A DNA stretch of 64,000 nucleotides from a virus: positions 50,214-114,213 of the IMG/VR virus record IMGVR_UViG_3300029319_000010; one strand, 5' to 3'. A program made the translations under genes and the position numbers. This document shows, piece after piece, positions 1,355 to 44,750 of the stretch. Position 1 is the first letter of the stretch. Each line of letters begins with the position of its first letter. Below the pieces are notes generated by a model. The model was not told where the DNA came from. It ran no database searches and was given only the letters and a program-made list of their open reading frames with translations.

Positions 1355-1364
1355 AGTTTTAAAT

Positions 1365-5051: not shown

Positions 5052-5387
5052 TTAACATTTCCATTTTTTTCTTGCAAGACATGCTCTTTTCTTAGGAGTT
5101 TTCCTGCAATCTATATTAAACTTTTTAATTTGACCTAAATTTCTTGCACAGAAAGATCTTTTACGCGGCCCTCCTCCTGGTTGAGGTGGTTTTAAATTAG
5201 ATCCTGTTTTACGGTTAATCATCTTACGGCCTTTAGCTGTAAGTCCCCCTGATTTACTTTTACAACCATTTTTAATTGTACAGCCTGCCATACCACCTTT
5301 TTTGAATGATTCATACATTCCTGGTACTTTTCTGTTTCTATCATCATATATTGGGGCAACATCTGTCCCTGCTAATATTTGACTCAT
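5052..5387 (-). CDS. Small basic Cys-containing protein (DUF6321-like), FKKGG motif
   Basis: GGLTAKGRK...GSNLKPP...RKRSFCAR...ARKKWKC; start moved to MSQILAG. Confidence 0.6.
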   Translation of the reverse strand: MSQILAGTDVAPIYDDRNRKVPGMYESFKKGGMAGCTIKNGCKSKSGGLTAKGRKMINRKTGSNLKPPQPGGGPRKRSFCARNLGQIKKFNIDCRKTPKKRACLARKKWKC

Positions 5388-5388
5388 T

Positions 5389-5601
5389 TTATTTCTTTTT
5401 ATTTTTTTTCCAACTAATTCTTTTTTTACTGGTTTTTTTTCTAGCCGCAGATGTACATTGTGCTTTAGTAGGTCTACAAGCAGGATATGGTCTTTTAGAA
5501 TCAGTTCTAGACTTTCTTCCACAAGGCTTTCCAGTCTTACAATCTATCCAACCTTTACCCTGGTTTCTACTAAACCATTTACGTAAACCTTCTTTAGCCA
5601 T
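5389..5601 (-). CDS. Small basic protein (DUF5872-like)
   Basis: GLRKWF...WIDCKTGKPCGR...YPACRPT. Confidence 0.55.
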   Translation of the reverse strand: MAKEGLRKWFSRNQGKGWIDCKTGKPCGRKSRTDSKRPYPACRPTKAQCTSAARKKTSKKRISWKKNKKK

Positions 5602-5807
5602 TATTTTTTCTTTTTCTTCTTTTTAGAATTACCCCAATTAGCAGCACCTACCTTTCTACACTTTACTAAAGCTCCTGATCCATAAGCAGATGGCCAGGTA
5701 CCTCCATTTCTAGTATATCTTGCTTTTACTTTATAATAGCATGCATCTTTTTTACTACCACCTTTTTTATATTCTTTATCTTCTTTAACTTTTTTTAATA
5801 CTGACAT
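5601..5807 (-). CDS. Small basic protein, YKKGG motif
   Basis: KKDACYYKVKARY...WPSAYGSGALVKCRKVGAANWGN; start moved to MSVLKK. Confidence 0.65.
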   Translation of the reverse strand: MSVLKKVKEDKEYKKGGSKKDACYYKVKARYTRNGGTWPSAYGSGALVKCRKVGAANWGNSKKKKKKK

Positions 5808-5811
5808 CTTT

Positions 5812-6045
5812 TTATTTTTTACTATGTAATTTCTGTACTTTAAATTTAGCAACAAGTGATGCACCTTTATGTGGTTTAAACTTGCCTGTATGCTTCATTA
5901 ATTTATATCCAGATCCACTTTTCATCCAGTGAAAGCCAGCAGGAGCCTTTACAGACTTCATACTAGTAGATCCACCTTTTTTATAAACACTCTTAGGCAT
6001 TTTAGCATTTGACTTTGTAACTTTTCTTTTATTTAAATGTCCCAT
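5812..6045 (-). CDS. Small basic protein, YKKGG motif
   Basis: VKAPAGFHWMKSG...LMKH; Lys-rich. Confidence 0.7.
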   Translation of the reverse strand: MGHLNKRKVTKSNAKMPKSVYKKGGSTSMKSVKAPAGFHWMKSGSGYKLMKHTGKFKPHKGASLVAKFKVQKLHSKK

Positions 6046-6047
6046 AA

Positions 6048-6392
6048 TTAAAACGGTATTGTTATTGTTAAACTTCCTGAACCTTTACCTATATTTAAAC
6101 TACCCCATATACACATTCCATATTTGCAAAACCCCCTTGATGGTGGTTGTGTGCATTGACAATTAGGTAGATTTAATCTAGGATCACCAGTTCCACCTAC
6201 TTGTTCTGTAAATTTAATTTGTGCAGCTAAAAAACTTCTTAATTCAGCTAGTGTTAATTTATCTTCTTTTAATTGTCTAGCTCCTGCTTCTCCTCTTCTT
6301 CTTGCTATAGTATTAAATATAAATTCAGATGTATCTATAAGGGTATCACTATCTACAATGATTTCATGATATGTTTTTACTTGATCATTCAT
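6048..6392 (-). CDS. Hypothetical protein with Cys-rich C-terminus
   Basis: Start moved to MNDQVK (6392), abutting the upstream stop at 6394. Confidence 0.55.
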   Translation of the reverse strand: MNDQVKTYHEIIVDSDTLIDTSEFIFNTIARRRGEAGARQLKEDKLTLAELRSFLAAQIKFTEQVGGTGDPRLNLPNCQCTQPPSRGFCKYGMCIWGSLNIGKGSGSLTITIPF

Positions 6393-6393
6393 T

Positions 6394-6774
6394 TTAAAAA
6401 GTTTTACGTTTACCACCGTCATACTCCACGGCATAACCTTCTTTTACAAGACAATCATTTACACAAACTTTAGTTATTGTGTCTTTGCCTGCTATTTTAT
6501 CTATATGTAATCTACCAAGAACTCTACCATATTTACCCAGCTCTTGTGATTCTAACTCAAAACAATTAGCCGCACCATCTAACATATCTGTTAGCCTTTC
6601 TTTTGCAGCCAAACCTAATTTCTTTTCAACTTTATTTCTTGTTCTAGATTCTGGTGCATTAATACCAGCAAGTCTAATCCTTTTTTTAACGTGTACACCA
6701 AACCCTAGATCTATCATTGCATCTATTGTATCACCATCAACTACCTTTACACACTTTGCATTATAGTTATACAT
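6394..6774 (-). CDS. Thermonuclease (staphylococcal nuclease-like)
   Basis: VVDGDTID, RIRLAGINAPE, GKYGRVLG, LVKEGYAVEYDGG; start at MYNYNAK. Confidence 0.9.
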   Translation of the reverse strand: MYNYNAKCVKVVDGDTIDAMIDLGFGVHVKKRIRLAGINAPESRTRNKVEKKLGLAAKERLTDMLDGAANCFELESQELGKYGRVLGRLHIDKIAGKDTITKVCVNDCLVKEGYAVEYDGGKRKTF

Positions 6775-7078
6775 TATTAAATATTTTATTCTTAATCTTG
6801 AGCAACTCTGCACATTTTTCATATTCTTCTAGATCTTCATAATAATATATTGTATCATTATAAACATCTTCATCTGGCTCATCACTTGGATTATATATCA
6901 TAATTGCTTTTAAACCATACTTATCATTTACATCTAAAAGATCCTCAAATGAAGCTTTTTTTGTTAAAACCATATACGAGTTTTCAAATGCTTGTTCTAC
7001 AATATAGTTTTCATATTCTATTTTTTCTTCAAGACTCATCTTTTCAGATGATTCTTCATTGAAAGGATCTTTTGACAT
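6767..7078 (-). CDS. Acidic protein with UvrB/UvrC-like (UVR) motif
   Basis: YYEDLEEYEKCAELLKIK. Confidence 0.55.
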   Translation of the reverse strand: MSKDPFNEESSEKMSLEEKIEYENYIVEQAFENSYMVLTKKASFEDLLDVNDKYGLKAIMIYNPSDEPDEDVYNDTIYYYEDLEEYEKCAELLKIKNKIFNNV

Positions 7079-7097
7079 AATTTTAAGTTTTAGTTTT

Positions 7098-7271
7098 TTA
7101 ACCTCTTCCTCTACTTCTCTTTAGAGAAGAAGAACCTTTGAATCTTGCAGCTTCCATTCTTGGGTCCATATTATGAGATCCACCATACATCATGTATCCC
7201 ATACCCATAGTTTTAGGCTTCTTTTTGTCACCACCCGCACGGTAGTTCATTCTTTTTCTAGTTCCTGGCAT
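7098..7271 (-). CDS. 57-aa basic protein (not in ORF track)
   Basis: MPGTRKRMNYRAGGDKKKPKTMGMGYMMYGGSHNMDPRMEAARFKGSSSLKRSRGRG; fills the operon gap, A-rich leader. Confidence 0.8.
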   Translation of the reverse strand: MPGTRKRMNYRAGGDKKKPKTMGMGYMMYGGSHNMDPRMEAARFKGSSSLKRSRGRG

Positions 7272-7300
7272 AATTTTAAATTTTAATAGTTAATAAATAA

Positions 7301-8008
7301 TTACATCATGTTTCTTCTAAACATTCTGTCTCTTTTTCTATCCATACGTCTATCACGTCTTGCTTGCTGTCTCTCTGTTCTAGCATCTATTCTACCCATC
7401 TTTCTAGCTTGTCTGTCCATACGTCTATCCATTCTTCTTTCTTGTCTGTTCTCTCTTCTGTCCGCTCTACGTGCTTGTCTTTCCTCTCTTCTATCAGCTC
7501 TTCTAGCTTGTCTCATCTCTCTCATTAGGTCACGACCTTCTTTTCTAGCCGCTCTACGCATAAATCTGTTTCCTATTCTAGTTAAAGCTGGATCTGGTCC
7601 TCCCATTCCAGGTGCCATATAGTTAAATCCCATAGTTCCTGGTCCTGACATTCCCATCATATTAAATCCTGGTCTTGCATAAGCTGTTTGCATAGGGTTT
7701 ACAACAGGCATTATATTTGATCCTGTACCCATGCCTGCTTCAACGGCAGAGCTTAAATCTCCAGTAGTATTATAATTAGCTATTCCTTCATCAACCATAT
7801 CTGGATTTAGACCTGCATCTATTAATTCTTCTCTAATTTCTCCCGTATCTTGATACGAAGTCAATTTCTTTCTAGTTCCGCCTCCATACCCCATTCTTCT
7901 ACGAGCTGTCCCACCAGATTTAAGATAACCCATTTTCTTTCTAACACTAGGGTCTAATGCTCTTAATCCGTTATATTTTTTACCTTTTGGTATTGCTTTA
8001 AGTGCCAT
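7301..8008 (-). CDS. Arg/Met/Gly-rich low-complexity protein with protamine-like C-terminus
   Basis: Repeats such as RQARRADRRE and RRMDRRMDR; first gene of the leftward operon. Confidence 0.75.
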   Translation of the reverse strand: MALKAIPKGKKYNGLRALDPSVRKKMGYLKSGGTARRRMGYGGGTRKKLTSYQDTGEIREELIDAGLNPDMVDEGIANYNTTGDLSSAVEAGMGTGSNIMPVVNPMQTAYARPGFNMMGMSGPGTMGFNYMAPGMGGPDPALTRIGNRFMRRAARKEGRDLMREMRQARRADRREERQARRADRRENRQERRMDRRMDRQARKMGRIDARTERQQARRDRRMDRKRDRMFRRNMM

Positions 8009-22039: not shown

Positions 22040-22454
22040 TTTAGAAGAATATAAAAAATTAAGAGAACTTCTCCATGGATCTGATGAAGATTATGAGGTT
22101 GCATGTGAGAATATAAAGAACATAAAAGAAATAACATCTGTTACAAAAATGTTATTTGCTAAATCTTTGGCGTTTGGTAGAAGACAAGCTTTTTGTGAAA
22201 AGTTTAAGATAGACTACCATGGTATTAAAGAATGGAATAAAATGTTTAAAGATCTTAATAATACTTTAGGTATAAGAACTGAACAAGAGATTATAGAGTT
22301 TGAAGTACATAAACAAATGCTTCCTGTCTTTACAAGTACTTGGAGTTTTATTAAAGATGTTAAGATTAAACTTGATTGGGAGCATGAGCTACCAATTGAA
22401 CCAGTTAGTAAAGAGGATCAACGTGAAATAGATAAAATAGTAAATAATTTATAA
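22032..22454 (+). CDS. Hypothetical protein
   Basis: ORF track; N-terminal helical motif resembles segments of the 24886 and 25941 ORFs. Confidence 0.7.
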   Translation: MISLEEYKKLRELLHGSDEDYEVACENIKNIKEITSVTKMLFAKSLAFGRRQAFCEKFKIDYHGIKEWNKMFKDLNNTLGIRTEQEIIEFEVHKQMLPVFTSTWSFIKDVKIKLDWEHELPIEPVSKEDQREIDKIVNNL

Positions 22455-25944: not shown

Positions 25945-27200
25945 CAGATTTAAAACAATTATGGTTAATTGATATTGACCCAAATAAAATGGACACAGTA
26001 AATAATACTTTAGTAATGCAAAGTGGTTGTCTTAAAGTAAAACAATTGGGTCATTATATAGAATCAGCTAAGAATAGTGGTGGGTATAGAAAGAGTTCTA
26101 ATACAAAGATTAAAGAGATAATGAATGATATTGGAACTATTACATCTGATGATCTTAAAAATGCTAATTCATTATATAGATTTCCTAGACTTAGTTTATC
26201 AAGAGATAAAGTAAAGGTACTACAAGAAAAGTTTGATCTTAAGTTGAAAAGAGATTTTCACCAGGCAGACTATGGTATTGTATCTGAGAAGTATTTTGAT
26301 GGATTATTTGTTACTAGATGGCTTGCTAAAGCAGATGTTGCAGATGTACTTTCTTGGGCACAAACTTATCAAGATTGTTTTGAAGAGGATCTTTTTGATG
26401 AAATTGTAAATGATTTAAACAAGATACCTGCAGATGCTTATATTGTATTTGAGTCAGAATGGTTTAGTTCATATTACCACGATGGTGCTAGTAATATTGA
26501 TAGATATTCTAAGATGGCTGAAAAAGCAAGAAACATAGGTAGAAATACTCAATATCATTATTACATTGAATCATTAGATCAGTGGAATGATATACAAGCT
26601 AATATGTCTAAACTTGTTTGGGACAGCAATATGAATGATCTTGCTACAGAAGACTCTGAAGTATTAACAGAAGAGATGTATATACAACTTAAAACTATGC
26701 TTGGTTGGGAAAAGACTGAAAGTGGTTGTGGTTGGCAAGGTACTAGAGACAAAGAGAATATGAATCTAGCTTTGAGCATTATTGCTAATTGTAATATTCA
26801 AAAGTCTCATACATATATAGCTTTATTATTTTCATTCTTAAGTGACTCTATGAAAGATTCATCTGTTTGGAATACTGTTAACTTTAAATCTGTAAGAAAG
26901 AAGTTTGATAAGTATATACAAATGAATGGTTGGAACTGGTGTCATAGTTATAATTATTTAATTGAATATTTAATTAAAGATAATGCATTAACTGAATACG
27001 CTTGGAAAGAAATTGCTCAGAAGATGTATGATGATGTATTGTCATCTCAGATGGGTGTTGATAGTAAAAATCATTTTAGTATTAGTCCTGATAGTATTCA
27101 ATTAAAACCGGAACTTAAAGAAAAGGTTATACCAAGTCAAGAAGAACTTCAGTATATGGAAGATCTTGTTGATATGCACACTGAATCACATAGATTATGA
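25941..27200 (+). CDS. Hypothetical protein, probable paralog of the previous gene
   Basis: ORF track. Confidence 0.7.
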   Translation: MTDLKQLWLIDIDPNKMDTVNNTLVMQSGCLKVKQLGHYIESAKNSGGYRKSSNTKIKEIMNDIGTITSDDLKNANSLYRFPRLSLSRDKVKVLQEKFDLKLKRDFHQADYGIVSEKYFDGLFVTRWLAKADVADVLSWAQTYQDCFEEDLFDEIVNDLNKIPADAYIVFESEWFSSYYHDGASNIDRYSKMAEKARNIGRNTQYHYYIESLDQWNDIQANMSKLVWDSNMNDLATEDSEVLTEEMYIQLKTMLGWEKTESGCGWQGTRDKENMNLALSIIANCNIQKSHTYIALLFSFLSDSMKDSSVWNTVNFKSVRKKFDKYIQMNGWNWCHSYNYLIEYLIKDNALTEYAWKEIAQKMYDDVLSSQMGVDSKNHFSISPDSIQLKPELKEKVIPSQEELQYMEDLVDMHTESHRL

Positions 27201-28183
27201 TAGATAAAATTAAAGAAGATCTGTTTTACAAGGGAGAGTTTAGCTTTAGCTACTCTTCCTTAAACAGGTTATTGTTTTCACCCAAACTCTTTTATAGAGA
27301 TTATATTCTTAAAGAAAGGGAACTTAAGATGGAAAAACATCTTATTGAAGGTAGGTTAGTACACTTACTTCTTCTTGAGCCAGACCGGTTTGATGAAGAG
27401 TTTAAAGTAGTGCCTACTAGAATTCCTTCAGACTCTCTTCGTAAAGTATTGTATGATATTAGTCAACACACTGATCTTACAGAACTTAGTATTATAGATG
27501 ACAAAATAATATTGCAATCACTTAAAAATGTTGGTCTATACCAATCGTTGAAAGATGAATCTAAACGTATTGCTAAAGTACGCACTATAGAATGTGAAGA
27601 TTATTATGGTTTCAAGACAAACTCAAAAGGTTTAGAAGTTATTGATAATGACATGTTAACCAGAGCAACAGAAAGAGTTGATATAATAAAGTCTAACAAA
27701 GATGTTATGGCTTTACTTATGGAACAAGGTACTGATTGGGATTTAGATCATATTCAAGTATATAATGAGAAGAAATTAAACTGTGATTTAAATAATTACA
27801 AGTTTGGTTTAAAAGGTATTATAGATAAGTATATAATTGATGATGAATCAAAGACAATAACTATTGTAGATCTTAAAACTACTGCAAAACCATTAGAAAA
27901 CTTTGCAGAAACTGTAGATTTTTACAATTATTGGCTTCAAGCAGCTATATATTCATTGCTTGTTATTAAAAATGTTGATGAAAGACAACAGGATTATAAA
28001 ATTATTTTTAAATTTGTAGCTATAGATAAGTATGATCAAGTCTATACATTTCCTGTATCAGAGTCAACACTACTAAGATGGATGAATGAATTAAATAGAG
28101 CATTAAAACTAGCAAATTATCATTACAGTGAAAGAAGATATGACTTACCATATGAATTTGCAAACGGTAATGTAATACTATGA
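27197..28183 (+). CDS. PD-(D/E)XK exonuclease (RecE/ExoVIII-like)
   Basis: FSYSSL, GRLVHLLLLEP, KGIIDK, IVDLKTT, YWLQAAIY. Confidence 0.85.
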   Translation: MIDKIKEDLFYKGEFSFSYSSLNRLLFSPKLFYRDYILKERELKMEKHLIEGRLVHLLLLEPDRFDEEFKVVPTRIPSDSLRKVLYDISQHTDLTELSIIDDKIILQSLKNVGLYQSLKDESKRIAKVRTIECEDYYGFKTNSKGLEVIDNDMLTRATERVDIIKSNKDVMALLMEQGTDWDLDHIQVYNEKKLNCDLNNYKFGLKGIIDKYIIDDESKTITIVDLKTTAKPLENFAETVDFYNYWLQAAIYSLLVIKNVDERQQDYKIIFKFVAIDKYDQVYTFPVSESTLLRWMNELNRALKLANYHYSERRYDLPYEFANGNVIL

Positions 28184-34207: not shown

Positions 34208-34342
34208 TTATCTACCTTGACCTCTATACTTTTTAGTATAATTGCTACCTCCCTTATTGAATGTAGTTCTACTCTTAGCATGTCTACCATGAGATTTTCT
34301 ACTATTAGGCATAAATGTAAATGTATTTTTCTTTGTCGCCAT
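34208..34342 (-). CDS. 44-aa basic protein ending KKYRGQGR (not in ORF track)
   Basis: MATKKNTFTFMPNSRKSHGRHAKSRTTFNKGGSNYTKKYRGQGR; TAATG overlap with the upstream gene. Confidence 0.8.
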   Translation of the reverse strand: MATKKNTFTFMPNSRKSHGRHAKSRTTFNKGGSNYTKKYRGQGR

Positions 34343-34722
34343 TATACTCTTGTAAAGAATGCATATACTACATTTGTAACTGCAGTATCATACTTTAATT
34401 TTGCACCTGTTCCATCTTCAACTACAAAAAATGCAAAATCACCAACTCCTAATTTAGTTAAGTTAGTGCTTCCACCATCATTAGTAACAAGTATATTACC
34501 AGTTCCAGTACCACCACCATTAGTTCCTGTATTATGAACAAATAAATATGTATCACCTTGACTTGTAGGAATAATTGATTGATTTAAAGCAGCATATGTC
34601 GTTATACCAGCTGAAGTTACTGTGCTTTCTTGTACAGTAATAACAGGGTTTAAGGTTATAGACACAGGATCACTTTGACCAGTTATAGTACCTGTAAGAT
34701 TAAATAAAGTTTGTAAATTCAT
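34342..34722 (-). CDS. Beta-rich putative virion protein, paralog A1
   Basis: YLFVHNTG...KLGVGDFAFF...KLKYD. Confidence 0.65.
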   Translation of the reverse strand: MNLQTLFNLTGTITGQSDPVSITLNPVITVQESTVTSAGITTYAALNQSIIPTSQGDTYLFVHNTGTNGGGTGTGNILVTNDGGSTNLTKLGVGDFAFFVVEDGTGAKLKYDTAVTNVVYAFFTRV

Positions 34723-34745
34723 TTTATTATTATTTTATATTATTA

Positions 34746-35150
34746 TTAATGTCTTTTTAGATAAGCATAAACATATGTAGTAACTGAGTTATCATATACA
34801 GCCTTTAAACCTGCTTGTGCTATCAAAGGTATAAACATTGCATCACCAACATTTAAATGTGCTATGTTTGTTCCAGCACCGTTTGTAAGTATAACTTTAC
34901 CTCCAGTACTAAGATCTCCGTTTGCACCAACATTTCTAACATACACATACTGTGTAGAACCTCCAGCTGCAGGTGCAGCAGATGTTCCTAGTATTTCAAA
35001 AGGTGTACCATTTACGGTATTTCTTGATGCAGATGTTAGAGAAGGATTTTCAACGTCTAATTCAAAGTCAGTAAAATTAATACCTACTGAATCACTTTGA
35101 CCTGTTAAACTTCCGTTTAAACTTAAACTAAATTTTACTTTATCAGCCAT
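34746..35150 (-). CDS. Beta-rich putative virion protein, paralog A2
   Basis: YVYVRNVG...HLNVGDAMFIP...KAVYD. Confidence 0.65.
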   Translation of the reverse strand: MADKVKFSLSLNGSLTGQSDSVGINFTDFELDVENPSLTSASRNTVNGTPFEILGTSAAPAAGGSTQYVYVRNVGANGDLSTGGKVILTNGAGTNIAHLNVGDAMFIPLIAQAGLKAVYDNSVTTYVYAYLKRH

Positions 35151-35168: not shown

Positions 35169-35570
35169 TTATTGTTTCTTCTTATTAAATTTTTCAACAG
35201 ATCTACCACCAAAATAGGCACCAATCACTGTTATTAATACTAACTGTAGAAGATCAGTCCACTTTTCTTCTACGGTAAATGTTAATGCACCAGCATCAAT
35301 AAAGATCAATAACATAGTACATACTATTAAAAATATAAGAACCATAGGTCTTACATTTTTACTTAACCAACTATCAGAATTCATATCTGCCGTCCAACGG
35401 TCAGTTATATTTTTTTCCATTTGAGCTTCATGATTCATGATTAGCTCTTTTAGTTTTCTTTTAGCGTCTAGTTTTTCTTCATCTGTTGTTACTAAGTTAT
35501 CTATCACACCACCAACTGATTCTACCAAGTTGCTTCCGGCACCTGAGAAAATCTTTTTTAGTATACTCAT
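35169..35570 (-). CDS. Holin of the 3TM/GTA-release type
   Basis: DRWTADMNSDSWLSKNVRP, two TMs, GAYFGGRSVEK. Confidence 0.85.
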   Translation of the reverse strand: MSILKKIFSGAGSNLVESVGGVIDNLVTTDEEKLDAKRKLKELIMNHEAQMEKNITDRWTADMNSDSWLSKNVRPMVLIFLIVCTMLLIFIDAGALTFTVEEKWTDLLQLVLITVIGAYFGGRSVEKFNKKKQ

Positions 35571-35587
35571 ACTTTAAGTTTTTAAAT

Positions 35588-35764
35588 TTACAATACCCCG
35601 TTAGGACCAATAGAACCAACAGAACCTCCATATTTAGCAAATATGTCACTGGTACCAGTTCCATAACCACCTACCCTCGACCCTCTTTTCATTGCTTTTC
35701 TTTTTTCTCTTCTATCTTGTCTTCTATTTCTTCTATCTTGTCTTTTTTCTTTATTTCCAAACAT
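35588..35764 (-). CDS. 58-aa basic protein ending GPNGVL (not in ORF track)
   Basis: MFGNKEKRQDRRNRRQDRREKRKAMKRGSRVGGYGTGTSDIFAKYGGSVGSIGPNGVL. Confidence 0.8.
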   Translation of the reverse strand: MFGNKEKRQDRRNRRQDRREKRKAMKRGSRVGGYGTGTSDIFAKYGGSVGSIGPNGVL

Positions 35765-35783
35765 AATATTTATTTTTTAATAT

Positions 35784-35918
35784 TTATAATACCCCATTAG
35801 GTCCCACAGACTTCATTAATGGTTTGTGATATTCACCACCACACATCATCATGTGAGATCCCCCACACTTATAAGTCTTTTTCTTTTTCTTATCTTTCTT
35901 TTTCTTTTTATACATCAT
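35784..35918 (-). CDS. 44-aa poly-Lys protein ending GPNGVL (not in ORF track)
   Basis: MMYKKKKKDKKKKKTYKCGGSHMMMCGGEYHKPLMKSVGPNGVL; ATGA overlap. Confidence 0.8.
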   Translation of the reverse strand: MMYKKKKKDKKKKKTYKCGGSHMMMCGGEYHKPLMKSVGPNGVL

Positions 35919-36148
35919 AATAAACTATTTGGTCCCATGTTCATACCATATGGACAACCGCAACCCTGCACCTGTCCACCTTCAGCTTTTTTAAAGCTTT
36001 TTAATGTTTTAGCTAAGTTACATCTACGTTTTGCTTTAGTAGATGGAGGATTCTTGCAATATTCTGAGATGCTCTTTCCTTCAGCTTTAGCAGCTGCAGT
36101 CAAAGCACCTGGTTTTTTTATTGCTTTTTTTATCCAATTCTTAGCCAT
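35915..36148 (-). CDS. Small basic protein ending GPNSLL
   Basis: KNWIKKAIKKPGAL...RRCNLAKTLK. Confidence 0.75.
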   Translation of the reverse strand: MAKNWIKKAIKKPGALTAAAKAEGKSISEYCKNPPSTKAKRRCNLAKTLKSFKKAEGGQVQGCGCPYGMNMGPNSLL

Positions 36149-36151
36149 ATT

Positions 36152-36457
36152 TTAATCTTCACAAACATTTGAGTGGGAGCCATCACAGTATCCATCAGGA
36201 TCTGAAGTGGTACCACACACACATTCTTTCTTATCTTTAACAAAGAATCTATCATATGCACCTTCTTTAACTGTCTTTACAAAAAGTTCAAATTGATCTT
36301 TTGTAAACTCAGTATAGCCTTCATCTTCTCCACCAACAATTACTTTGTCAGATTCGGTTGAGATGTCAATTGCTGGACAACTCTTACAGCTAGCACAAAA
36401 AGTCATTTGTGATCTGTTTGCACTAATTTTTACATTTTTTAATCCTTCTAATTCCAT
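36152..36457 (-). CDS. Protein with C-terminal CDGSH iron-sulfur motif
   Basis: CVCGTTSDPDGYCDGSH; N-terminal CASCKSC. Confidence 0.75.
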   Translation of the reverse strand: MELEGLKNVKISANRSQMTFCASCKSCPAIDISTESDKVIVGGEDEGYTEFTKDQFELFVKTVKEGAYDRFFVKDKKECVCGTTSDPDGYCDGSHSNVCED

Positions 36458-36461
36458 TGGT

Positions 36462-36830
36462 TTATACTTTTTTAAATTTAGCGTAATTAACTACACATGC
36501 AGCAGTGTCAGAAATTAATTCTAATCCTTCTCCACCGTCACAACATAAAAACATGAAGCTACCTGGAAAGAGTTTAGCATATGTATTATTTGCCACGTCT
36601 TGAACAGTTACAAAATTGGCAAGATCTGTATTTTGAATGAATATATAAGTATCAGCAGCAGTAGTTGGAATAATCTCTGTAGCAGATGTTGGTATTGACA
36701 TAGATTTTGATTCTACGTCAGTATTATCAAAATTTACAGTGTCTAAAACTGTGCTATTTAAACTAAATATACCACTAACTGTGTCAGCAGTATTAAGGTT
36801 TAATGAGAGATTAAGTGCTTGTGTTGCCAT
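36462..36830 (-). CDS. Beta-rich putative virion protein, paralog A3
   Basis: YIFIQNTD...KLFPGSFMFL. Confidence 0.6.
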   Translation of the reverse strand: MATQALNLSLNLNTADTVSGIFSLNSTVLDTVNFDNTDVESKSMSIPTSATEIIPTTAADTYIFIQNTDLANFVTVQDVANNTYAKLFPGSFMFLCCDGGEGLELISDTAACVVNYAKFKKV

Positions 36831-37012
36831 TATATTTCAAATCCAAAGTTAAATATCATAAATCTAAATCTTTTACAATTTGGCTGTTTGTTTTCACAAA
36901 ACCAGCATGGGCAAAAGTATAGTTCTAATAATGTTAATTTACCAAGTCTAAGGTTTAATTCATAAACCTCTTTCTTATTTCCTGATTTCCAGGAATTAAT
37001 CCAATTTATCAT
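36830..37012 (-). CDS. 60-aa amphipathic beta-strand, Cys-containing protein
   Basis: First gene after the late motif at 37038. Confidence 0.65.
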   Translation of the reverse strand: MINWINSWKSGNKKEVYELNLRLGKLTLLELYFCPCWFCENKQPNCKRFRFMIFNFGFEI

Positions 37013-37037
37013 AATAAAATAATTTATGTTATATTAT

Positions 37038-37050
37038 TAATATACAAAAA
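37038..37050 (-). promoter_or_regulatory. Candidate late promoter TTTTTGTATATTA
   Basis: 25 nt upstream of ATG 37012. Confidence 0.6.
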
Positions 37051-37062
37051 AATAAGTGAAAA

Positions 37063-38136
37063 TTAAAGTATGATATAGTTTATTCCAAACTTGAAATCAT
37101 GCCAGTCACGGTTCCAGTATTTGTTATATTTTCCTTCAATAAAGATACCTAGGTTCTTATTGATCTTATAACCAAATATTAAACCACCTGAATAATCTAT
37201 CCAATTGCCACCATTAAAATTATGATATGAGTACTCACCCCCTGTATCCAAATGCACCGGTAGTAGGTTCGCCCAAGAATGAAACCATATTGTTTTAGTG
37301 TAGTGATAGTAGTCTAAACCAACTACTAGAGAATGACACCACTGAACAGGTAATGCATCCTTTTTTGATTTCACATAATCATTAAGAACTTGGGGGACCA
37401 CTACCTCTTCCCATACTTCACTACTTGTAGCCACGACTGCTCCACTAGGGTCTAAGTAGCTTATTCCTGTTGGGTCAAACCCAATTGTGTAGCCTTCCTC
37501 TAAAGCAAGGTTTGTGTAGTGTATGTTTCCATTAGATAGTACCCACTCAGCTAAAGGGTCATAACCGTAAGGTTCTGATATTCTTTGTACAGCTCCTGCA
37601 GTAACTGAAAGTTTTCTACCTATCTTTTGTCTATATCGTTGTGACGCTTCCATGTATTCTACATCAGCAAAGCCGTCTTGTAAGTACTCTATCTTAACCA
37701 CCCATCTATCTGCTAAGTATCGTAAAAAGTGATGTTGGTCTACATAAGAGTTACCTTGTTGTCTTTTATAATCTGCCTCAAACAAAAACTCAAATCCTCT
37801 AGTTCGTCCAATAGTAGCGGCATCAGAGTAAGAAGTTTCTGTACCATCTTTGAATGTATTAGCTTTATTCTCGTATCCAAATCTTTGTATCTTTCTTACA
37901 CCTACAGTAAAAGCATAGTCAAATGGAGTTTCTATTACATCGGTTTGAAGTCCATCTAATATAGAATATGTATTCTGATCTGAAATAGAGGTACCACCAT
38001 TTACTGCAGCGTAGAATGTAGAGAACTTAAAAGTTTTCTTAAGTTCTGTTTTAAACTTGCTATCCTGAGCACAACACTTTTTAGGTGCTACACAAGACAA
38101 TAATAGTAATAATATGGTTAGTAGTATTTTTTTCAC
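37063..38136 (-). CDS. Putative outer-membrane beta-barrel protein
   Basis: Signal peptide; alternating aromatic strands; C-terminal strand DFKFGINYIIL. Confidence 0.7.
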   Translation of the reverse strand: MKKILLTILLLLLSCVAPKKCCAQDSKFKTELKKTFKFSTFYAAVNGGTSISDQNTYSILDGLQTDVIETPFDYAFTVGVRKIQRFGYENKANTFKDGTETSYSDAATIGRTRGFEFLFEADYKRQQGNSYVDQHHFLRYLADRWVVKIEYLQDGFADVEYMEASQRYRQKIGRKLSVTAGAVQRISEPYGYDPLAEWVLSNGNIHYTNLALEEGYTIGFDPTGISYLDPSGAVVATSSEVWEEVVVPQVLNDYVKSKKDALPVQWCHSLVVGLDYYHYTKTIWFHSWANLLPVHLDTGGEYSYHNFNGGNWIDYSGGLIFGYKINKNLGIFIEGKYNKYWNRDWHDFKFGINYIIL

Positions 38137-41100
38137 AACTTAATTATTTTCTTGGTTATTCTTATTTTATCATATGTAATAATCAAATTATACATTCCAT
38201 CGGGATAATCTGATAAATCTATTCTTTTAATATTATCTGTTTGTATAATCTCTCCTACCATATTATATAGTTCTACATCAACATCTAGTCTTGTTTCTAT
38301 AGTAAATGTATTTGCTGTAGGATTGGGGTATACAATTATATCACTACCTGATAGCTCATCTAAGTTAACTGGCCATCCTTCTTCACAATAATTATACATA
38401 GATTGACAGGTCTCATCCCATACCTCAGTACAACAATAGTTATCTATATCTATAACCCAAGCATAACAAGGATCATTTAACCAATAAGGTTCTCCAGGTC
38501 CACCATAGCAACCAGCATCATAAAGACAAGTGGTATTATCTGGTAAGTTAACTAACGGATCATAGTTATATGCATTAGGATCAGCACATCCTTCTATTAT
38601 AACTACACAACTACCATCATCAAAACAAGCATCTTCATCATAGTTTAGTGCAGTACTATCTGTACAACCTCCAACATAACAACATGAATTATCTAAAGTA
38701 TTTGCTAACGGATCAAAGTTAAGAGCCATTGTGTCTGTACAACCATATACAAATTCTATACACGTACCATTATCTGTATTTGCTAATGGGTCATAGTTAA
38801 ATGCAGTAGAATCCATGCAACCATATACATAAGGTATACAGTTACCGCTATCAGTATTTGCAGTAGAATCATAATTAAACATGGTAGAATCCATACATCC
38901 TATAATAACACCTTCACAGCTTCCATCATCTGTATTGGCATCTGCATTATAGTTAAAAGCCTCTGGATTGGTGCAACCTAGTATAGGGTATATACATCCA
39001 TTATTAGTATTTGCTAACTCATTATAATTTAACGCAGTTGAATCTGTACAACCAATCACAACATCAATACATGAGCCGTTGTTTGTATTTGCTGTGGCAT
39101 TAAAATTAAATGCACTTGGATCTGTGCATCCATATATAGCATATATACACCCTGAATTAGTATTAGCGGTAATTTGATAATTTAAAGCTGTATCATCAGT
39201 GCATCCTATTACTACTGGTTGACATGAATCATCATCAATATTAGCATTTACATTAAAGTTAAATGCTGTTGGGTCAGTACATCCTAGAACAGGATATACA
39301 CAACCTGAGTTAGTATTAGCTAGTTGATCATAGTTTAGTGCTGTATCATCTGTACACCCTATAACAACATCAACACAACTATTGTCAGTAGTATTAGCTT
39401 GTGGATTATAGTTAAATGAATCAGGATTTGTACAACCATAAACAAATGAAATACATCCTACATTTGTGTTAGCAGTTTCATCATAATTATATGCTTCAGG
39501 ATCCGTACATCCATATGCAAACTCTATACATGATCCATCATCAGTGTTTGCATTAACATTAAAATTAAACATTGTAGGATCCATACAACCATATACAAAT
39601 GGCTCACATGGATTATTTTCATCTGCTGTATTAGCTTCTGCATTATAATTAAATGCTGTTTCATCTAAACAACCGTATATAAATGGTTCACATAAATTAT
39701 TATTTGTGTTAACATCTACACCATTTATTCCTGTTAATGGATTTCCTACTCCATCATTATCATAATCATTATATGTATAAGAGTTTGGATTTAAACAACC
39801 ATATACAAAAGGATAACATGAGCCATCATCGGTATTAGCTAGCTCATTATAGTTAAATTGATTTGACTGTGTACAACCTTCAACAACTGGTTCACAACTA
39901 TCATCATCTACATTTGCATCTGGATAGTAATTAAATGCTTCATCATCTGTACAGCCATACACTATTTCTATGCAAGAGTCATTATCTGTATTAGCGTCTT
40001 CATCATAGTTAAACGCAGCAGAGTCTGTACAACCATTAATAACAGGCTGACATGATCCTGGTTCTAGAGTATTTGCTTCTTGATCATAATTAAATGCTAA
40101 TGGGTCTGTACAACCTAATATAGTTGGTATACAAGGATCTGTTTCATCTTCAACAGCTACTTGATTAACTGTTGCTAGTTCATTATAGTTATATGCAGTT
40201 TCATCTATACAGCCGAATATAGCATATACTTCACATGTTCCATCATCAAAATCTGCTTCTATTGCATTTTGTTCTATATAATTATAATATTCAATATAAG
40301 CTGCATCAGTACAACCAGGGTTGTAATAACAGTCATTACTGCTTGTATTTGCTATTGGATCAAAGTTAACTGCTTCTAAATCTAAACAACCATAAATTTT
40401 AGGAATACAGTTATTACCACACAGAGCTTGACCTTGATATAGAAAGTTGTATTGATTATAAGAAAGTATTGGATTTGTATAAGGGTTAGTTCCACCTTCT
40501 AATATAATGTCTCCTATAGGGTTAATTATTTCAAAGCTGCATTGTTCTGTTGTTTGTTGAGATTGACCAAAAGAATAAAAATAAGCTTTAACCATTTCAC
40601 TGGTATTAAAATTAATTTCAGTTTCAAAAACTGTTTGATCACTTTGTAATGTAAAAGGCCCCCACCACTGATCACCTTGTGTAACTACTAAAAATGAACC
40701 TGCCCAACCATTATCAGCCCAATCCGTCAATCTTAATGTATTTGTACAATTAGGGTTTGATAGTTGTGTATTTGCATCAGGGTTAAAATTAAAAGCATCA
40801 GGGTTTATACAGCCAAATATTCTTTCTGTTTCACATGATCCGTCATCTTCATTAGCATAAGGGTTAAACTCTAAATACTCATTGTTTGTACATCCTTGTA
40901 CAGTCTCTGGTGCACATGGTGTTACTTGACCAACATCAATTATAAGCTCTCCAAAATCACCTATACCTTCTGATATTGTATCACCACATTCTGTATATAC
41001 CGCCCAAGTACCATCTATACCACCCCATTGAGCTCCACCAAGACCATCTCCATATGAGTCTTGTAACCAAAACATTATGTTAGTATTGTCATCAATGCAA

Positions 41101-42299
41101 GTTTGATATTCTACTGTAGTACCTACTGGCACACCACAATACGTTGTGTTATCATTTACTTCTGCTAAAGGTGTTCCATCACCATACTGATCATATATTA
41201 TCCAACTAGTTTCACAGCCATACTGATCCACCATTATTTCAACTGTAACTAAAGTTTTACCTGCTGTGCATGTTATATCTCCTCCATTACATGAACCATC
41301 GTCTGTAGTTGCTGCAGGGTTATAACTAGCTGCTTCTGGGTCTGTACAACCTGGTATGTTAATACAAGATCCATCATCAATACCTGCTTCTTCATTATAG
41401 TTTAATGCATTTGGGTCTGTACATCCATAAATAAAAATACAAGGATCTACCTGCCATGTTTCTCCTACTACAGCATTTACATTTACACCTGGAGTATTTG
41501 TATTAGGGTTTCCATCTGCTTCTGCTTGTGTTGATACTACATAGATTAATGTTGTGGGTGAATTACAACCTCCACCATCAAAAGCTACAGCATCTATAAA
41601 CCATTGTTGTCCATTATCACCAACATATATTCTTGCACCAATTTGTAGAATATCTTGATATTGTAAATAAAATTCGGGATCAACTCCAAAGTGAGTATTA
41701 GTAAAGGATACCAAGTTACATGTTGAACCTGGTGTTATAATGCCTGTTGGTATATCTGCTGCAAGTGGATTATAATTAAATGCAAACTCATTTATACATC
41801 CATAAATATATGTACAACTACCATCATTAATTAAGGCATCTTCGTTAAAGTTTTCTGCTAATTCATCTGTACAACCTTGTAAAGGAGGAGCACAAGGTGC
41901 TATAGTTAATGTATCTACTAAAGATATTGGTCCGCTAGGTTCTGTTGTTAGTACTGAATCTTCATAAAAAGCACCTTCTACATACATTAAACTATCTTGA
42001 CAAGCATTACTTATTGAAAACCATCCATTATTACCACCCCAAAAAGATCCAGCTAAACCATCACCATAAGCATCATTTAATGAAATAATATATTCACCTG
42101 CTGGTATACTTATTATAGTATCATGTAAAAATTCTGGCAATAAAAATGGTTCATTTACAGCTATTGCAGCACCGCTAATATCATAAAGTTCCCATGATGT
42201 TTCACCAGGATATTGGTCTGTTTGTAACTGTATATGTATCCAAGATTCTTGAGTAAATACTAGTATAGGAACTAGTAATAAGAATATTAGTTTTTTCAT
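38133..42299 (-). CDS. T9SS type A sorting-domain protein with about 29 GCTDxxAxNY repeats
   Basis: Sec signal MKKLIFLLLVPILVFT-Q; C-terminal IVYPNP...LYNMVGE...IDLSDYPDGMYNLII...TKKIIKL. Confidence 0.9.
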   Translation of the reverse strand: MKKLIFLLLVPILVFTQESWIHIQLQTDQYPGETSWELYDISGAAIAVNEPFLLPEFLHDTIISIPAGEYIISLNDAYGDGLAGSFWGGNNGWFSISNACQDSLMYVEGAFYEDSVLTTEPSGPISLVDTLTIAPCAPPLQGCTDELAENFNEDALINDGSCTYIYGCINEFAFNYNPLAADIPTGIITPGSTCNLVSFTNTHFGVDPEFYLQYQDILQIGARIYVGDNGQQWFIDAVAFDGGGCNSPTTLIYVVSTQAEADGNPNTNTPGVNVNAVVGETWQVDPCIFIYGCTDPNALNYNEEAGIDDGSCINIPGCTDPEAASYNPAATTDDGSCNGGDITCTAGKTLVTVEIMVDQYGCETSWIIYDQYGDGTPLAEVNDNTTYCGVPVGTTVEYQTCIDDNTNIMFWLQDSYGDGLGGAQWGGIDGTWAVYTECGDTISEGIGDFGELIIDVGQVTPCAPETVQGCTNNEYLEFNPYANEDDGSCETERIFGCINPDAFNFNPDANTQLSNPNCTNTLRLTDWADNGWAGSFLVVTQGDQWWGPFTLQSDQTVFETEINFNTSEMVKAYFYSFGQSQQTTEQCSFEIINPIGDIILEGGTNPYTNPILSYNQYNFLYQGQALCGNNCIPKIYGCLDLEAVNFDPIANTSSNDCYYNPGCTDAAYIEYYNYIEQNAIEADFDDGTCEVYAIFGCIDETAYNYNELATVNQVAVEDETDPCIPTILGCTDPLAFNYDQEANTLEPGSCQPVINGCTDSAAFNYDEDANTDNDSCIEIVYGCTDDEAFNYYPDANVDDDSCEPVVEGCTQSNQFNYNELANTDDGSCYPFVYGCLNPNSYTYNDYDNDGVGNPLTGINGVDVNTNNNLCEPFIYGCLDETAFNYNAEANTADENNPCEPFVYGCMDPTMFNFNVNANTDDGSCIEFAYGCTDPEAYNYDETANTNVGCISFVYGCTNPDSFNYNPQANTTDNSCVDVVIGCTDDTALNYDQLANTNSGCVYPVLGCTDPTAFNFNVNANIDDDSCQPVVIGCTDDTALNYQITANTNSGCIYAIYGCTDPSAFNFNATANTNNGSCIDVVIGCTDSTALNYNELANTNNGCIYPILGCTNPEAFNYNADANTDDGSCEGVIIGCMDSTMFNYDSTANTDSGNCIPYVYGCMDSTAFNYDPLANTDNGTCIEFVYGCTDTMALNFDPLANTLDNSCCYVGGCTDSTALNYDEDACFDDGSCVVIIEGCADPNAYNYDPLVNLPDNTTCLYDAGCYGGPGEPYWLNDPCYAWVIDIDNYCCTEVWDETCQSMYNYCEEGWPVNLDELSGSDIIVYPNPTANTFTIETRLDVDVELYNMVGEIIQTDNIKRIDLSDYPDGMYNLIITYDKIRITKKIIKL

Positions 42300-42302
42300 A
42301 TT

Positions 42303-42626
42303 TTAAAATTTATTAGCAAGTATTTCGTCAATATATGCTTGCACTTCTTTTGCATCTGCTTTCATAGTAAATGATATATCTGCTTGATATCTTTTTACTT
42401 CTTCACCATCATCAAATATTATAATTGTAGGAACTACTGCTATATTATGTTTTTCTTGTTGTTTTGGTTTGTCTGCTATATCTACATATGCTATATCACA
42501 ATCAACTAAATCATTACACCATTCTACATCATTTGTAGAGTTCCATCCTGCATTATATTGAACAACTTCTACCTGTCCATAGGCAATAGAAGACATCAAA
42601 CAAAATATAAAGAATATATTTTTCAT
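42303..42626 (-). CDS. Exported thioredoxin-fold protein lacking canonical CxxC
   Basis: Signal peptide ending AYG-Q; VVQYNAGWN, YVDI, IAVVPTIIIFDDGEEVKRY. Confidence 0.75.
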   Translation of the reverse strand: MKNIFFIFCLMSSIAYGQVEVVQYNAGWNSTNDVEWCNDLVDCDIAYVDIADKPKQQEKHNIAVVPTIIIFDDGEEVKRYQADISFTMKADAKEVQAYIDEILANKF

Positions 42627-42904
42627 TTTAATCTATCTATTTTATCTTCTATACGTTTTAAATCTTCTTTTATTTCCTCAACATCATCTTGAGTATTTTG
42701 AATTGTTAAACGTATATTTTTATCTTTCATATCAAACTCCATTCTTGTTACATCTGGATTTGGTGGTACAGGTAGCTCTTTAGCCTCAGCAATATCTGCC
42801 TGTAAAACAAACCACATACTTACTAAAGTAGTAATTAAAAAACCTATTCCACCTAGTGTCTTTAGGCTTATTTCAAATTTGGAATCTTCTGATATTTCTT
42901 TCAT
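42623..42904 (-). CDS. Single-TM coiled-coil membrane protein
   Basis: TM LGGIGFLITTLVSMWFVL, then PVPP and a coiled coil. Confidence 0.7.
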   Translation of the reverse strand: MKEISEDSKFEISLKTLGGIGFLITTLVSMWFVLQADIAEAKELPVPPNPDVTRMEFDMKDKNIRLTIQNTQDDVEEIKEDLKRIEDKIDRLK

Positions 42905-43308
42905 TTTGTACCTCCTTTTCTCATATAACCCTGGCCTGAAAATATAATCATCTTGTCTTTGTTTGCACCTCCTCTTTTCTTTGGTGATTTCTTAGCACCA
43001 GGATTTGACGTTTTTAATTTTCTTACATTATTTGTCATTGAAGTCAACTTATTCTGATTTTCTAGAAGTTTATTTTGACTCTCAATTAGTTGGTTATTGA
43101 GTTGAAGTTGTTTAATAATCTCTTTTTGATTATTCATTATAGATTGTTGATTAAGCATTGCTTGTTCATCAGGGTTAGGAACTTTATTAGGATCCATTTG
43201 AGGAACATCTACAAAATCAGATACAGCGGGTCTACCAATCCTAGATACCTTTCTAGGACCGGCATGATTATTAGGACCTCCCGCTCTATATTGTCTAATT
43301 CTACGCAT
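42901..43308 (-). CDS. Basic coiled-coil protein with YRAGG and MRKGG motifs
   Basis: Start moved to MRRIRQYRAGG (43308). Confidence 0.7.
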   Translation of the reverse strand: MRRIRQYRAGGPNNHAGPRKVSRIGRPAVSDFVDVPQMDPNKVPNPDEQAMLNQQSIMNNQKEIIKQLQLNNQLIESQNKLLENQNKLTSMTNNVRKLKTSNPGAKKSPKKRGGANKDKMIIFSGQGYMRKGGTK

Positions 43309-43312
43309 ATTA

Positions 43313-43696
43313 CTATGAAGTTGTATCCCAGTCAATTACAATTGATCCACAAACTACTCCAAGATTAGTTGCATTAGGAGCAATTTCAAGAAATCTTGCA
43401 TTTGCTGGATTAGTAATTTCAGTTGTACCTGCTCTAGCTAAAAATTCTGTAATTGCTCTTTGCAATTTTAATGCTTCACCAGTTGTTGTTATTGATGCTT
43501 TACAATCTTTTCTAGTATGTCCTAACCAAGTACCACTATGACCAGCATCTAGAAAAAAGATTTCAAGAGTATTTGCATCTGCTATTCTCATATTAACATT
43601 ATTTCCTGATCCAACTGGATAGGATATAATATCTTCTGTGTCATCAGCATATGTCATAATCCATTTTGGTAATGCTGCTAAATTTAATTCTGCCAT
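43313..43696 (-). CDS. Putative virion protein, paralog B1
   Basis: MAELNLAALPKWIM...LDAGH...ARAGTTEITN. Confidence 0.65.
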   Translation of the reverse strand: MAELNLAALPKWIMTYADDTEDIISYPVGSGNNVNMRIADANTLEIFFLDAGHSGTWLGHTRKDCKASITTTGEALKLQRAITEFLARAGTTEITNPANARFLEIAPNATNLGVVCGSIVIDWDTTS

Positions 43697-43722
43697 GTTT
43701 AAAAAATTTATTAAGTTAATTA

Positions 43723-44148
43723 TTATGCTATTATATCTTCTACTACCTCTAAGTCAGTAACAGTTGCTCCTAAAAAAGTATTTACATCACTTAAAACATC
43801 TCCATCAAGATATATCATTCTGTTATTATCTGTATTAGTAATTTCTGTAGATCCTGCTCTAGCTACCCACCTTGTAAAATTTCTTACTATATTAAGTCTA
43901 GTAGCATCGTCATCAGCATGTGTAAATACAATTGCCATATCACGTCTTGCACCAACAACACCTTCACTATCATGACCTGCATCCAATATACACACTAATG
44001 TTTTAGTTGGTGCACCTCCTGTTCCAGTATTACAAGATTTAAAAAATACTCTTGCACCCAAACCAATAGGTACTGATACACTTTTATTTTCTCCTGTGTC
44101 TTTAGCCATAACCCACTTGGGTAGTATTGCTTTGTTTAATTCTGCCAT
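43723..44148 (-). CDS. Putative virion protein, paralog B2
   Basis: MAELNKAILPKWVM...LDAGH...ARAGSTEITN. Confidence 0.65.
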   Translation of the reverse strand: MAELNKAILPKWVMAKDTGENKSVSVPIGLGARVFFKSCNTGTGGAPTKTLVCILDAGHDSEGVVGARRDMAIVFTHADDDATRLNIVRNFTRWVARAGSTEITNTDNNRMIYLDGDVLSDVNTFLGATVTDLEVVEDIIA

Positions 44149-44190
44149 ATTTAAAATATTTTAATTGTTTATATTCTTGTTTGTTATATT

Positions 44191-44691
44191 TTATAAAACC
44201 CTATTAGGTCCTGCTCCTCCTCTTGCTCCTTTTGCTCTGTTATAAGCTACAAGTTCAGTTGCTAAATTATTAGATCTTGTTGTATTTCTACTTTGTGCAT
44301 CTGTTCTTGCACGTAATGCTACATTATAACGGCTTAGATCTGCTGGGTCTAATGTATAATAAGCCAGTCTATCAGCAGTAACCGCACCTCTAGTGCCCGG
44401 ACTTACACGTCTTGCACTTCTATATATAGCAGGATTAGGTGCATCTGGAACAGTCTCTGGTGCAAATTTACTTTGTCTTGTACTAGGTTTTATTAAAACA
44501 TCTCTATTAATAGGATTTCTTGTACCTTTTGTTTGAAATTTTGCTGAAAACTTACTTGTAGGAAGTGGGGTTTCTGGTTTAACCAATAACTGTGCAGATA
44601 AATTATTACTTGGCGTAATACTGTTTAATGCATCGTTTGTTCTTTGACCATGAGATTGTTTCTCTTGGTCTGCTCTTTTTCTTGAAGCCAT
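44191..44691 (-). CDS. Basic, probably disordered protein ending GPNRVL
   Basis: First gene after the late motif at 44738. Confidence 0.75.
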   Translation of the reverse strand: MASRKRADQEKQSHGQRTNDALNSITPSNNLSAQLLVKPETPLPTSKFSAKFQTKGTRNPINRDVLIKPSTRQSKFAPETVPDAPNPAIYRSARRVSPGTRGAVTADRLAYYTLDPADLSRYNVALRARTDAQSRNTTRSNNLATELVAYNRAKGARGGAGPNRVL

Positions 44692-44714: not shown

Positions 44715-44750
44715 TATATTTGCTATTCTTATATAGATAATATACAAAAA
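44715..44750. promoter_or_regulatory. Overlapping promoters: plus TATATTTG (44715-44722) and minus late motif (44738-44750)
   Basis: Direct motif matches between divergent genes. Confidence 0.6.

Follow-up and report, generated by a model that had tools for sequence, protein, structure and literature searches.

Why should several proteins that otherwise have nothing in common end in the same few residues? This question is raised by a 64,000-nucleotide stretch of viral DNA (hereafter the window), positions 50,214 to 114,213 of the IMG/VR virus record IMGVR_UViG_3300029319_000010, which represents the final 64 kb of a 114,213-bp record with an estimated completeness of 98%. An initial annotation, made from the sequence alone, had noticed a C-terminal tag of the form GPN-x-[VL]-L on four basic and otherwise unrelated proteins, and had taken it for a terminal sorting signal, such as a capsid-loading tag or a degron. 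All four open reading frames (ORFs) were found on the minus strand: a 58-residue Arg/Lys-rich protein ending in YGGSVGSIGPNGVL (35588..35764, net charge +11), a 44-residue poly-Lys protein (35784..35918, +11), a 77-residue protein (35915..36148, +13), and a 166-residue protein ending in GAGPNRVL (44191..44691, +16). Their last residues are IGPNGVL, VGPNGVL, MGPNSLL and AGPNRVL, with tag and stop codon located at 35588-35608, 35784-35804, 35915-35935 and 44191-44211, respectively. The description of these proteins as basic (net charge +11 to +16) and as unrelated was borne out, the best pairwise alignment among the four reaching E = 0.11 once the tags were removed.

The tag is under protein-level selection, strictly terminal, swapped among unrelated protein bodies, and confined to one clade and to virus-derived DNA. 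Over six reading frames, four of the seven GPN triplets in the window, and four of the 13 in the whole 114,213-bp genome, are located exactly six residues ahead of a stop codon, all four on the late strand. The pattern GPN-x-[VILM]-[VILM]-stop occurs four times in the genome, whereas 300 shuffles averaged 0.06 occurrences and never gave more than one, and a reversed-pattern control gave no matches. In 2.4 Mb of related phage DNA, 56 copies of GPNG[VIML]L could be detected, each immediately ahead of a stop codon and none internal, which argues for recognition of a free C-terminus. The pattern thus extends well beyond the four copies first noticed. The synonymous difference between the two GPNGVL copies of the window was also confirmed (GGT CCT AAC GGG GTA TTG versus GGA CCT AAT GGG GTA TTA). 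Across the tags, four Gly, three Pro, both Asn and four Leu codons as well as all three stop codons are used, and synonymous variation is present at every position, indicating that conservation acts at the protein level.

Sixty distinct tagged proteins yielded the consensus K-K-K-[YF]-G-G-[AS]-[VI]-G-P-N-G-[VI]-L-COOH, in which the G, P, N and L of the tag are fixed by the pattern used for collection, whereas the GG pair and the [AS] and [VI] positions are not. The GG pair stands at a fixed distance before the tag in 47-48 of the 60 tags (~80%). Three classes of tail were distinguished: short tails, tails with an inserted QGCGCPYGM segment (class II), and tails with paired CGG motifs and EYH (class III). 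The bodies in front of these tails fall into 21 unrelated families, all with a positive net charge (+1 to +38) and many of low complexity and rich in Lys, and they include 300-residue proteins rich in Thr and Asp. PHROGs and Pfam searches of the tagged proteins returned nothing beyond phrog_20603 and DUF5872, neither of which has a known function. KKPGAL-type (phrog_20603) and DUF5872 bodies were also found in untagged form.

The window proteins themselves illustrate how tails and bodies are combined. The 77-residue protein joins a KKPGAL-type N-terminal module to a class II tail (GGQVQGCGCPYGMNMGPNSLL); in the closest relative, G001, this body and this tail are located on two distinct genes, and the tail is thus modular. 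The class III tail of the 44-residue protein (CGG..CGGEYH..VGPNGVL) is likewise joined to a KKPGAL-type body in relatives such as G008 and L105. In three metagenome homologues of the 58-residue protein (57-78% identity, with in-frame indels) the tail is kept. The 166-residue family, which was gathered via its conserved N-terminal domain, provides an independent test of the tag: 20 of 21 homologues, down to 35% identity, terminate in G-x-N-x-[VM]-L or N-x-V-L. In an AlphaFold2 (AF2) model of the 166-residue protein, the core (residues 65-157) was predicted with confidence and the tail (159-166) was disordered, with a predicted local distance difference test (pLDDT) score below 50; the model had no match in the PDB at E <= 0.001 and no usable match in the ESM Atlas.

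The distribution of the tag was examined with the pattern GG-x-V-G-P-N-G-x-L-stop. IMG/VR contained 38 matches in 22 stretches, and 33 additional stretches were found in JGI/TARA metagenomes, while 596 Gb of bacterial and archaeal genomes gave three isolated matches against approximately four expected by our own estimate, i.e., chance level. Every virus or metagenome stretch with the tag that could be placed belongs to one syntenic clade of marine Crassvirales-like phages, and the tag-positive genomes are monophyletic in a capsid-protein tree (100/100 support). Near-complete tag-positive genomes carry three to five tagged genes, with three tagged ORFs in G001. Four near-complete relatives whose capsid protein is approximately 80% identical have no tagged ORF, and no alternative common end was found in the tag-negative relatives. 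A literature search for the letters of the tag returned unrelated rhabdovirus papers only.

The tagged genes occupy two loci. In the first, tagged genes lie between a conserved 101-residue gene (36152..36457, minus strand), which forms the upstream border of the array slot, and a holin gene (35169..35570, minus strand; phrog_3427, E = 1e-32), or just beyond the holin, which is 71-98% identical across the tag-bearing stretches where it was found. In the second, known from relatives, they lie in a small-basic cluster upstream of the terminase and portal genes. This first small-basic late cluster heads the terminase-portal-capsid operon and is untagged in the window (5052..8008, minus strand); at the same site, L100, L180 and L186 carry a tagged DUF5872 protein and a class II tagged protein. 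Array composition differs between close relatives. In L158, the flanking genes are 97-99% identical, yet the 58-residue gene is missing and the 166-residue homologue is only 50% identical and ends in GANGVL.

A promoter-like motif, TTTGTATATTA, precedes both tagged units by 17-67 bp and stands at such a distance from genes of the tail, the cargo and the head operon too; none of the replication genes on the plus strand has it upstream. One site (44738..44748, minus strand), with a T-run ahead of it, is located 47 bp upstream of the 166-residue gene, making the separate transcription unit assigned to this gene by the initial annotation plausible. Another (37038..37048, minus strand) heads an operon composed of genes for 60-, 122- and 101-residue proteins, the three tagged genes and the holin, and is conserved at this operon head in G001, G007 and G008. 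Sites, all on the minus strand, are located at positions 44738, 37038 and 8075 of the window and 40796, 39214, 37222, 32869, 31586 and 14675 of the whole record (G000); the motif is often accompanied by TATAAC a few bases further and is conserved in relatives. Its total count is not above the shuffle expectation in this AT-rich genome, and the evidence resides in its placement. A scan for consensus sigma-70 promoters and terminators gave results at chance level. The T-run together with TTTGTATATTA has the appearance of this lineage's late promoter, and on such motif evidence the tagged and structural genes would be co-regulated late in infection.

The phage itself is crassvirus-like. A Pfam scan of the genome proteins recognised the crassvirus muzzle (crAss_MUZ) and the Ring 1 and Ring 2 tail domains, as well as an SLT domain within a 2,191-residue protein, and PHROGs identified the portal and the major head protein. 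The latter is of the HK97/crAss001 gp32 type, with a sequence match to 7QOF. More than 590 related capsid genes were found in IMG/VR, while the best match among cultured phages has 28% identity and none is close. A 1,388-residue protein carries a sorting domain of type IX secretion (Pfam), which points to a Bacteroidota host.

Taken as a sorting signal, the tag could well be a docking peptide, transferable between proteins, by which polycationic proteins are brought into the capsid, a reading to which we assign slightly less than an even chance. Late co-regulation with virion genes and the cargo zone of crassviruses make it the best single reading. The tag would consist of a GG hinge followed by [AS]-[VI]-G-P-N-G-[VI]-L, its terminal carboxyl group being free, and would mark fast-turning polycationic late proteins for one common partner. 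This partner would most likely be found inside the capsid during assembly: the luminal face of the major capsid protein, which has the HK97 fold, or a scaffold. Packaged alongside the DNA, the tagged proteins would then serve to neutralise charge or be injected, and the peptide might be retained or be cut after GG. A more specific version, in which the free C-terminal peptide GG-A-V-G-P-N-G-I/V-L docks directly on the luminal face of the capsid protein in the manner of encapsulins, appears possible but doubtful. The sorting-signal interpretation of the initial annotation is thus supported in part, with respect to protein-level conservation, terminal position and portability, and of the two functions it offered capsid loading is preferred; no positive support was found for a degron.

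Three known systems lend weight to capsid loading, namely the precedents of encapsulins and phage T4 and the cargo zone of crAss001. Encapsulins are virus-derived HK97-fold shells whose cargo is loaded via short peptides in disordered Gly/Pro/Ala-rich stretches (PMC8346489). The tag resembles these peptides in being a short Gly/Pro-rich sequence with spaced aliphatic residues at the disordered end of unrelated cargo proteins (for the 166-residue protein the tail has a pLDDT below 50), and the encapsulin partner is the luminal HK97-fold face, with an HK97-type crassvirus capsid protein available in the phage. Family 1 encapsulins use a C-terminal peptide of consensus SDGSLGIGSLKRS (PMC8346489), which the tag does not match. 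In Family 2, the motifs GPxGLGT and GP(N/T)GLGTSAAR bind a luminal three-fold pocket (PMC8346489, PMC13739066, PMC11550324), and a minimal peptide is sufficient for loading in vitro (PMC11550324, PMC13739066). In the S. griseus shell, F430, Y441, L285 and L264 are the conserved hydrophobic CLD-binding residues (PMC11550324). The G-P-N-G-aliphatic core of the tag coincides with Family 2 at four or five positions, which is not enough to demonstrate homology, and lacks the following G-T. Moreover, Family 2 motifs can also be internal or N-terminal, whereas the phage tag is obligatorily terminal. Encapsulins are cellular compartments with enzyme cargo encoded beside the shell gene, while here a phage encodes polycationic, hypervariable cargo in genes that are not adjacent to the capsid gene.

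The internal proteins of phage T4 (IPI-III and Alt) are diverse and share only a capsid-targeting sequence (CTS) leading into the scaffolding core (PMC3012670). The likeness lies in a single short terminal peptide on diverse, fast-changing small basic proteins packed with DNA, encoded by loci that vary between close relatives (PMC3012670); the 21 body families and the differing arrays found here fit this pattern. On the other hand, the CTS is N-terminal, approximately 10 residues long, binds the scaffold core and is cut off behind Glu by the prohead protease, whereas the phage tag is C-terminal and unrelated in sequence, and no protease was found in the proteins scanned. A further comparison is offered by the adenovirus core precursors pVII, pre-Mu and pVI, which are very basic and DNA-condensing and contain Gly-Gly sites and a C-terminal peptide with a role of its own. 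The tagged phage proteins are likewise very basic, with Gly-Gly and a short C-terminal peptide. However, the adenain consensus (M/L/I)-x-G-G does not fit the tag, where P4 is Lys or Arg, adenovirus is a eukaryotic virus, and no CE-clan protease was found in the phage.

The crassvirus precedent is the closest in virion type. According to the crAss001 structure paper, the capsid of this phage includes a cargo zone of approximately 5 MDa, i.e., a large luminal storage of protein, in a virion of the same type (PMC10172136). The cargo described there (gp45, gp46 and RNA polymerase subunits) is large (60-277 kDa) and helical, in contrast to the small tagged proteins; within the text covered, no common terminal tag is reported and small basic proteins are not mentioned, and neither a protease nor a scaffold nor a loading signal turned up in text searches of the paper (PMC10172136).

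Several observations weigh against capsid loading. The strongest is that the arrays usually flank the holin, which would also fit a lysis role. In this genome the tagged genes are located 41-51 kb from the capsid gene rather than adjacent to it, as encapsulin cargo genes in cellular genomes are to the shell gene. The likeness to encapsulins was found post hoc and extends over four or five residues, so that it is a lead and not a claim of membership, and the freedom of position of Family 2 motifs is a further mismatch. Among the late proteins scanned with Pfam and PHROGs, no PDZ, TPR or protease partner was recognised. Cultured phages gave no DNA match, weak matches to the KKPGAL module only and no tagged protein, and such proteins are absent from Cellulophaga phage phi14:2, the nearest phage for which proteomics exists. 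Finally, the tag-positive genomes form one clade, which makes gene co-occurrence uninformative. For this reason no weight is given to a phyletic profile of tag-positive versus tag-negative genomes, which listed a type IX secretion system (T9SS) cassette, the 101-, 60- and 204-residue genes and a nuclease.

Among the alternatives, the one that survives best is that the tag docks proteins which are never packaged onto a cytoplasmic hub of host or phage, such as the nucleoid or the replication, transcription or defence machinery. A strictly terminal peptide on several unrelated proteins is typical of hub-binding motifs, and arrays that vary between close relatives would fit host-interaction genes. 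Nevertheless, this explanation is considered unlikely, since the tagged genes are preceded by a promoter-like motif of the late, structural type, the uniform polycationic make-up is left unexplained, and the tag resembles neither the clamp-binding motif QL[SD]LF nor the tail of SSB. In addition, the same end was found on no host protein beyond chance in the 596 Gb of genomes.

The proximity of the holin underlies a second alternative, judged decidedly unlikely, in which the tagged proteins are lysis accessories, i.e., envelope-attacking polycations like phiKT gp28, and the tag ties them to the holin or another envelope component. Most loci have the array right beside the holin, in whose vicinity neither a spanin nor an endolysin was recognised, and in the tag-negative relatives G004 and G005 the holin likewise has small basic neighbours, there without the tag. 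Moreover, the start of many tagged proteins is Lys-rich and amphipathic (MPGKLLKK type), although the three holin-adjacent proteins of the window are not amphipathic. The second late locus, which precedes terminase and portal, is well away from the holin, the Thr/Asp-rich 300-residue proteins are tagged as well, and the tag is given no role of its own in such a scheme.

The recurrent GG pair raises the further idea that the tag is an end-specific site for a protease or adaptor, either a pro-peptide cut after GG or a degron that holds down the toxic effect of free polycations. ClpX, Tsp and PDZ-type proteases characteristically recognise a free C-terminus, the distance between GG and the tag is fixed in most tags, and cleavage could even follow capsid loading, as in T4. 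Nonetheless, class II and III tails have GG at other distances, the tag is unlike the ends of the ssrA type (..LAA), and the only protease domain in the scanned phage proteins is that of a putative DUF2201 metallopeptidase, which is also present in tag-negative relatives. For a degron in particular, the chance-level occurrence of the full tag in host-type genomes is unfavourable. Overall, this alternative is regarded as improbable.

Two remaining proposals carry little weight. That the conservation serves DNA, RNA or translation, with the tag acting for example as a linker in recombination, as a terminator or as a nascent peptide whose stalling at the stop codon couples translation to the following gene, would suit the tag always abutting a stop codon and the tight packing of the array genes, and is nevertheless very improbable given the synonymous variation at every tag codon with all three stops, the lack of any Rfam match or terminator-like site at the tags, and the retention of the tag on the 166-residue family, which has a folded core and is encoded by the first gene of its own unit. 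That a released C-terminal hexapeptide acts as a signal like arbitrium (AimP) is scarcely credible: a conserved six-residue end on short precursors and several copies per genome agree with it, whereas the proteins have no signal peptide, with Lys/Arg-rich rather than hydrophobic N-termini and highly basic bodies, 300-residue proteins are tagged too, no receptor-like TPR protein appeared in Pfam scans, and the phage looks strictly lytic.

Besides the tagged genes, several untagged proteins and other features were noted. A 44-residue untagged small basic protein (34208..34342, minus strand) belongs to the same operon and protein class, and a 144-residue untagged basic protein of this class (42901..43335, minus strand) carries YRAGGPN close to the N-terminus and terminates in RKGGTK; L158 does not conserve this GPN. 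Between the basic genes lie members of two small acidic paralogue families (34342-35150, 36462-36830 and 43313-44148, minus strand), three copies having an LTGQSD or similar start and two starting with MAELN, and none has a family match. Two ORFs antisense to the tagged genes, of 109 and 104 residues (35826-36155 and 35486-35800, plus strand), are both likely spurious, the tblastn matches of the former in relatives being explained by its shadowing of the conserved KKPGAL gene.

The bordering 101-residue Cys-rich protein was found in tag-positive genomes only, and Pfam finds nothing in it. Its N-terminal Cys-rich module is reminiscent of DUF397, and its second module combines a CDGSH-like Cys/His part with an acidic tail of the NEDVPFGD type in relatives. 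The two modules are separate ORFs in L098 and L104, and the second is missing in G001, L096 and L107. Upstream of the array, window positions 37063-42904 (minus strand) encode a T9SS cargo protein with Por_Secre_tail, a 357-residue protein without family match, a thioredoxin-like protein and a membrane protein; these genes are confined to the tag-positive clade, which is monophyletic, and the link may reflect descent only. Within the small-basic cluster, an endonuclease of phrog_452 (6394-6822, minus strand), also restricted to this clade, ends in EYDGGKRKTF (EYHGGKR in G001).

Two extensions of the tag family were considered and dropped. A PD-(D/E)XK nuclease (27197-28183, plus strand) was evaluated as a fifth tagged protein; it ends in ANGNVIL (AKGNVIL in its G001 orthologue), and this GNVIL end is probably due to chance, as the protein is acidic, belongs to the early/middle module and lacks G-P. 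The tag could also not be united with the YQDxGE motif of large cargo proteins as Y-x-x-x-G-x-[VI], since only the three YQD sites fit. The motif YQD[QT]GE[VI] itself is common to the N-terminus of a 950-residue cargo-like protein, an internal site of the 2,191-residue SLT protein and a 235-residue basic protein (L005:11798-14650, L006:708-7283 and window 7301-8008, all minus strand), and may be a processing site; it is not linked to the GPN tag. Between the portal gene (L007:13251-16010, minus strand) and the capsid gene (L007:9750-11384, minus strand) lies a gene for a 428-residue acidic protein without family match (L007:11855-13141, minus strand), a scaffold candidate with a terminal motif of its own, N-[KN]-N-I-F-K-R-[IFM], conserved in all relatives. 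Elsewhere in the window, genes for GroES (Cpn10; 1085-1378, minus strand), an HU-like DNA-binding protein (3073-3432, minus strand) and the DUF2201 protein (22454-23620, plus strand) were identified, the last having a putative metallopeptidase and a VWA-like domain and adjoining an AAA ATPase gene. At the start of the record, outside the window, approximately 4.6 kb (L005:1-4660, G000 1-4660) contain no ORF longer than 60 residues on either strand and no tRNA gene.

For crassviruses, the tag may represent the first signal of cargo loading to be recognised. As no mention of a loading signal, scaffold or protease was found in the searched text of the crAss001 paper, the way in which the ~5 MDa space is filled looks undescribed, and a short, portable and strictly terminal tag on at least 21 unrelated proteins offers a concrete, testable handle on it. 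The likeness to encapsulin Family 2 raises the question of whether shell-docking peptides predate the divergence of phage capsids and encapsulins or have arisen twice. If direct docking is true, these phages would carry an exchangeable arsenal of polycationic proteins travelling with their DNA, a possible evolutionary link to GPxGLGT would emerge, and a ready-made tag for packing foreign proteins would be available. Should the tag instead serve lysis or host takeover, it would still be an undescribed sorting signal. The change of arrays between close relatives suggests a packed protein set that evolves fast, and the phages concerned are frequent in metagenomes from the ocean, TARA samples among them.

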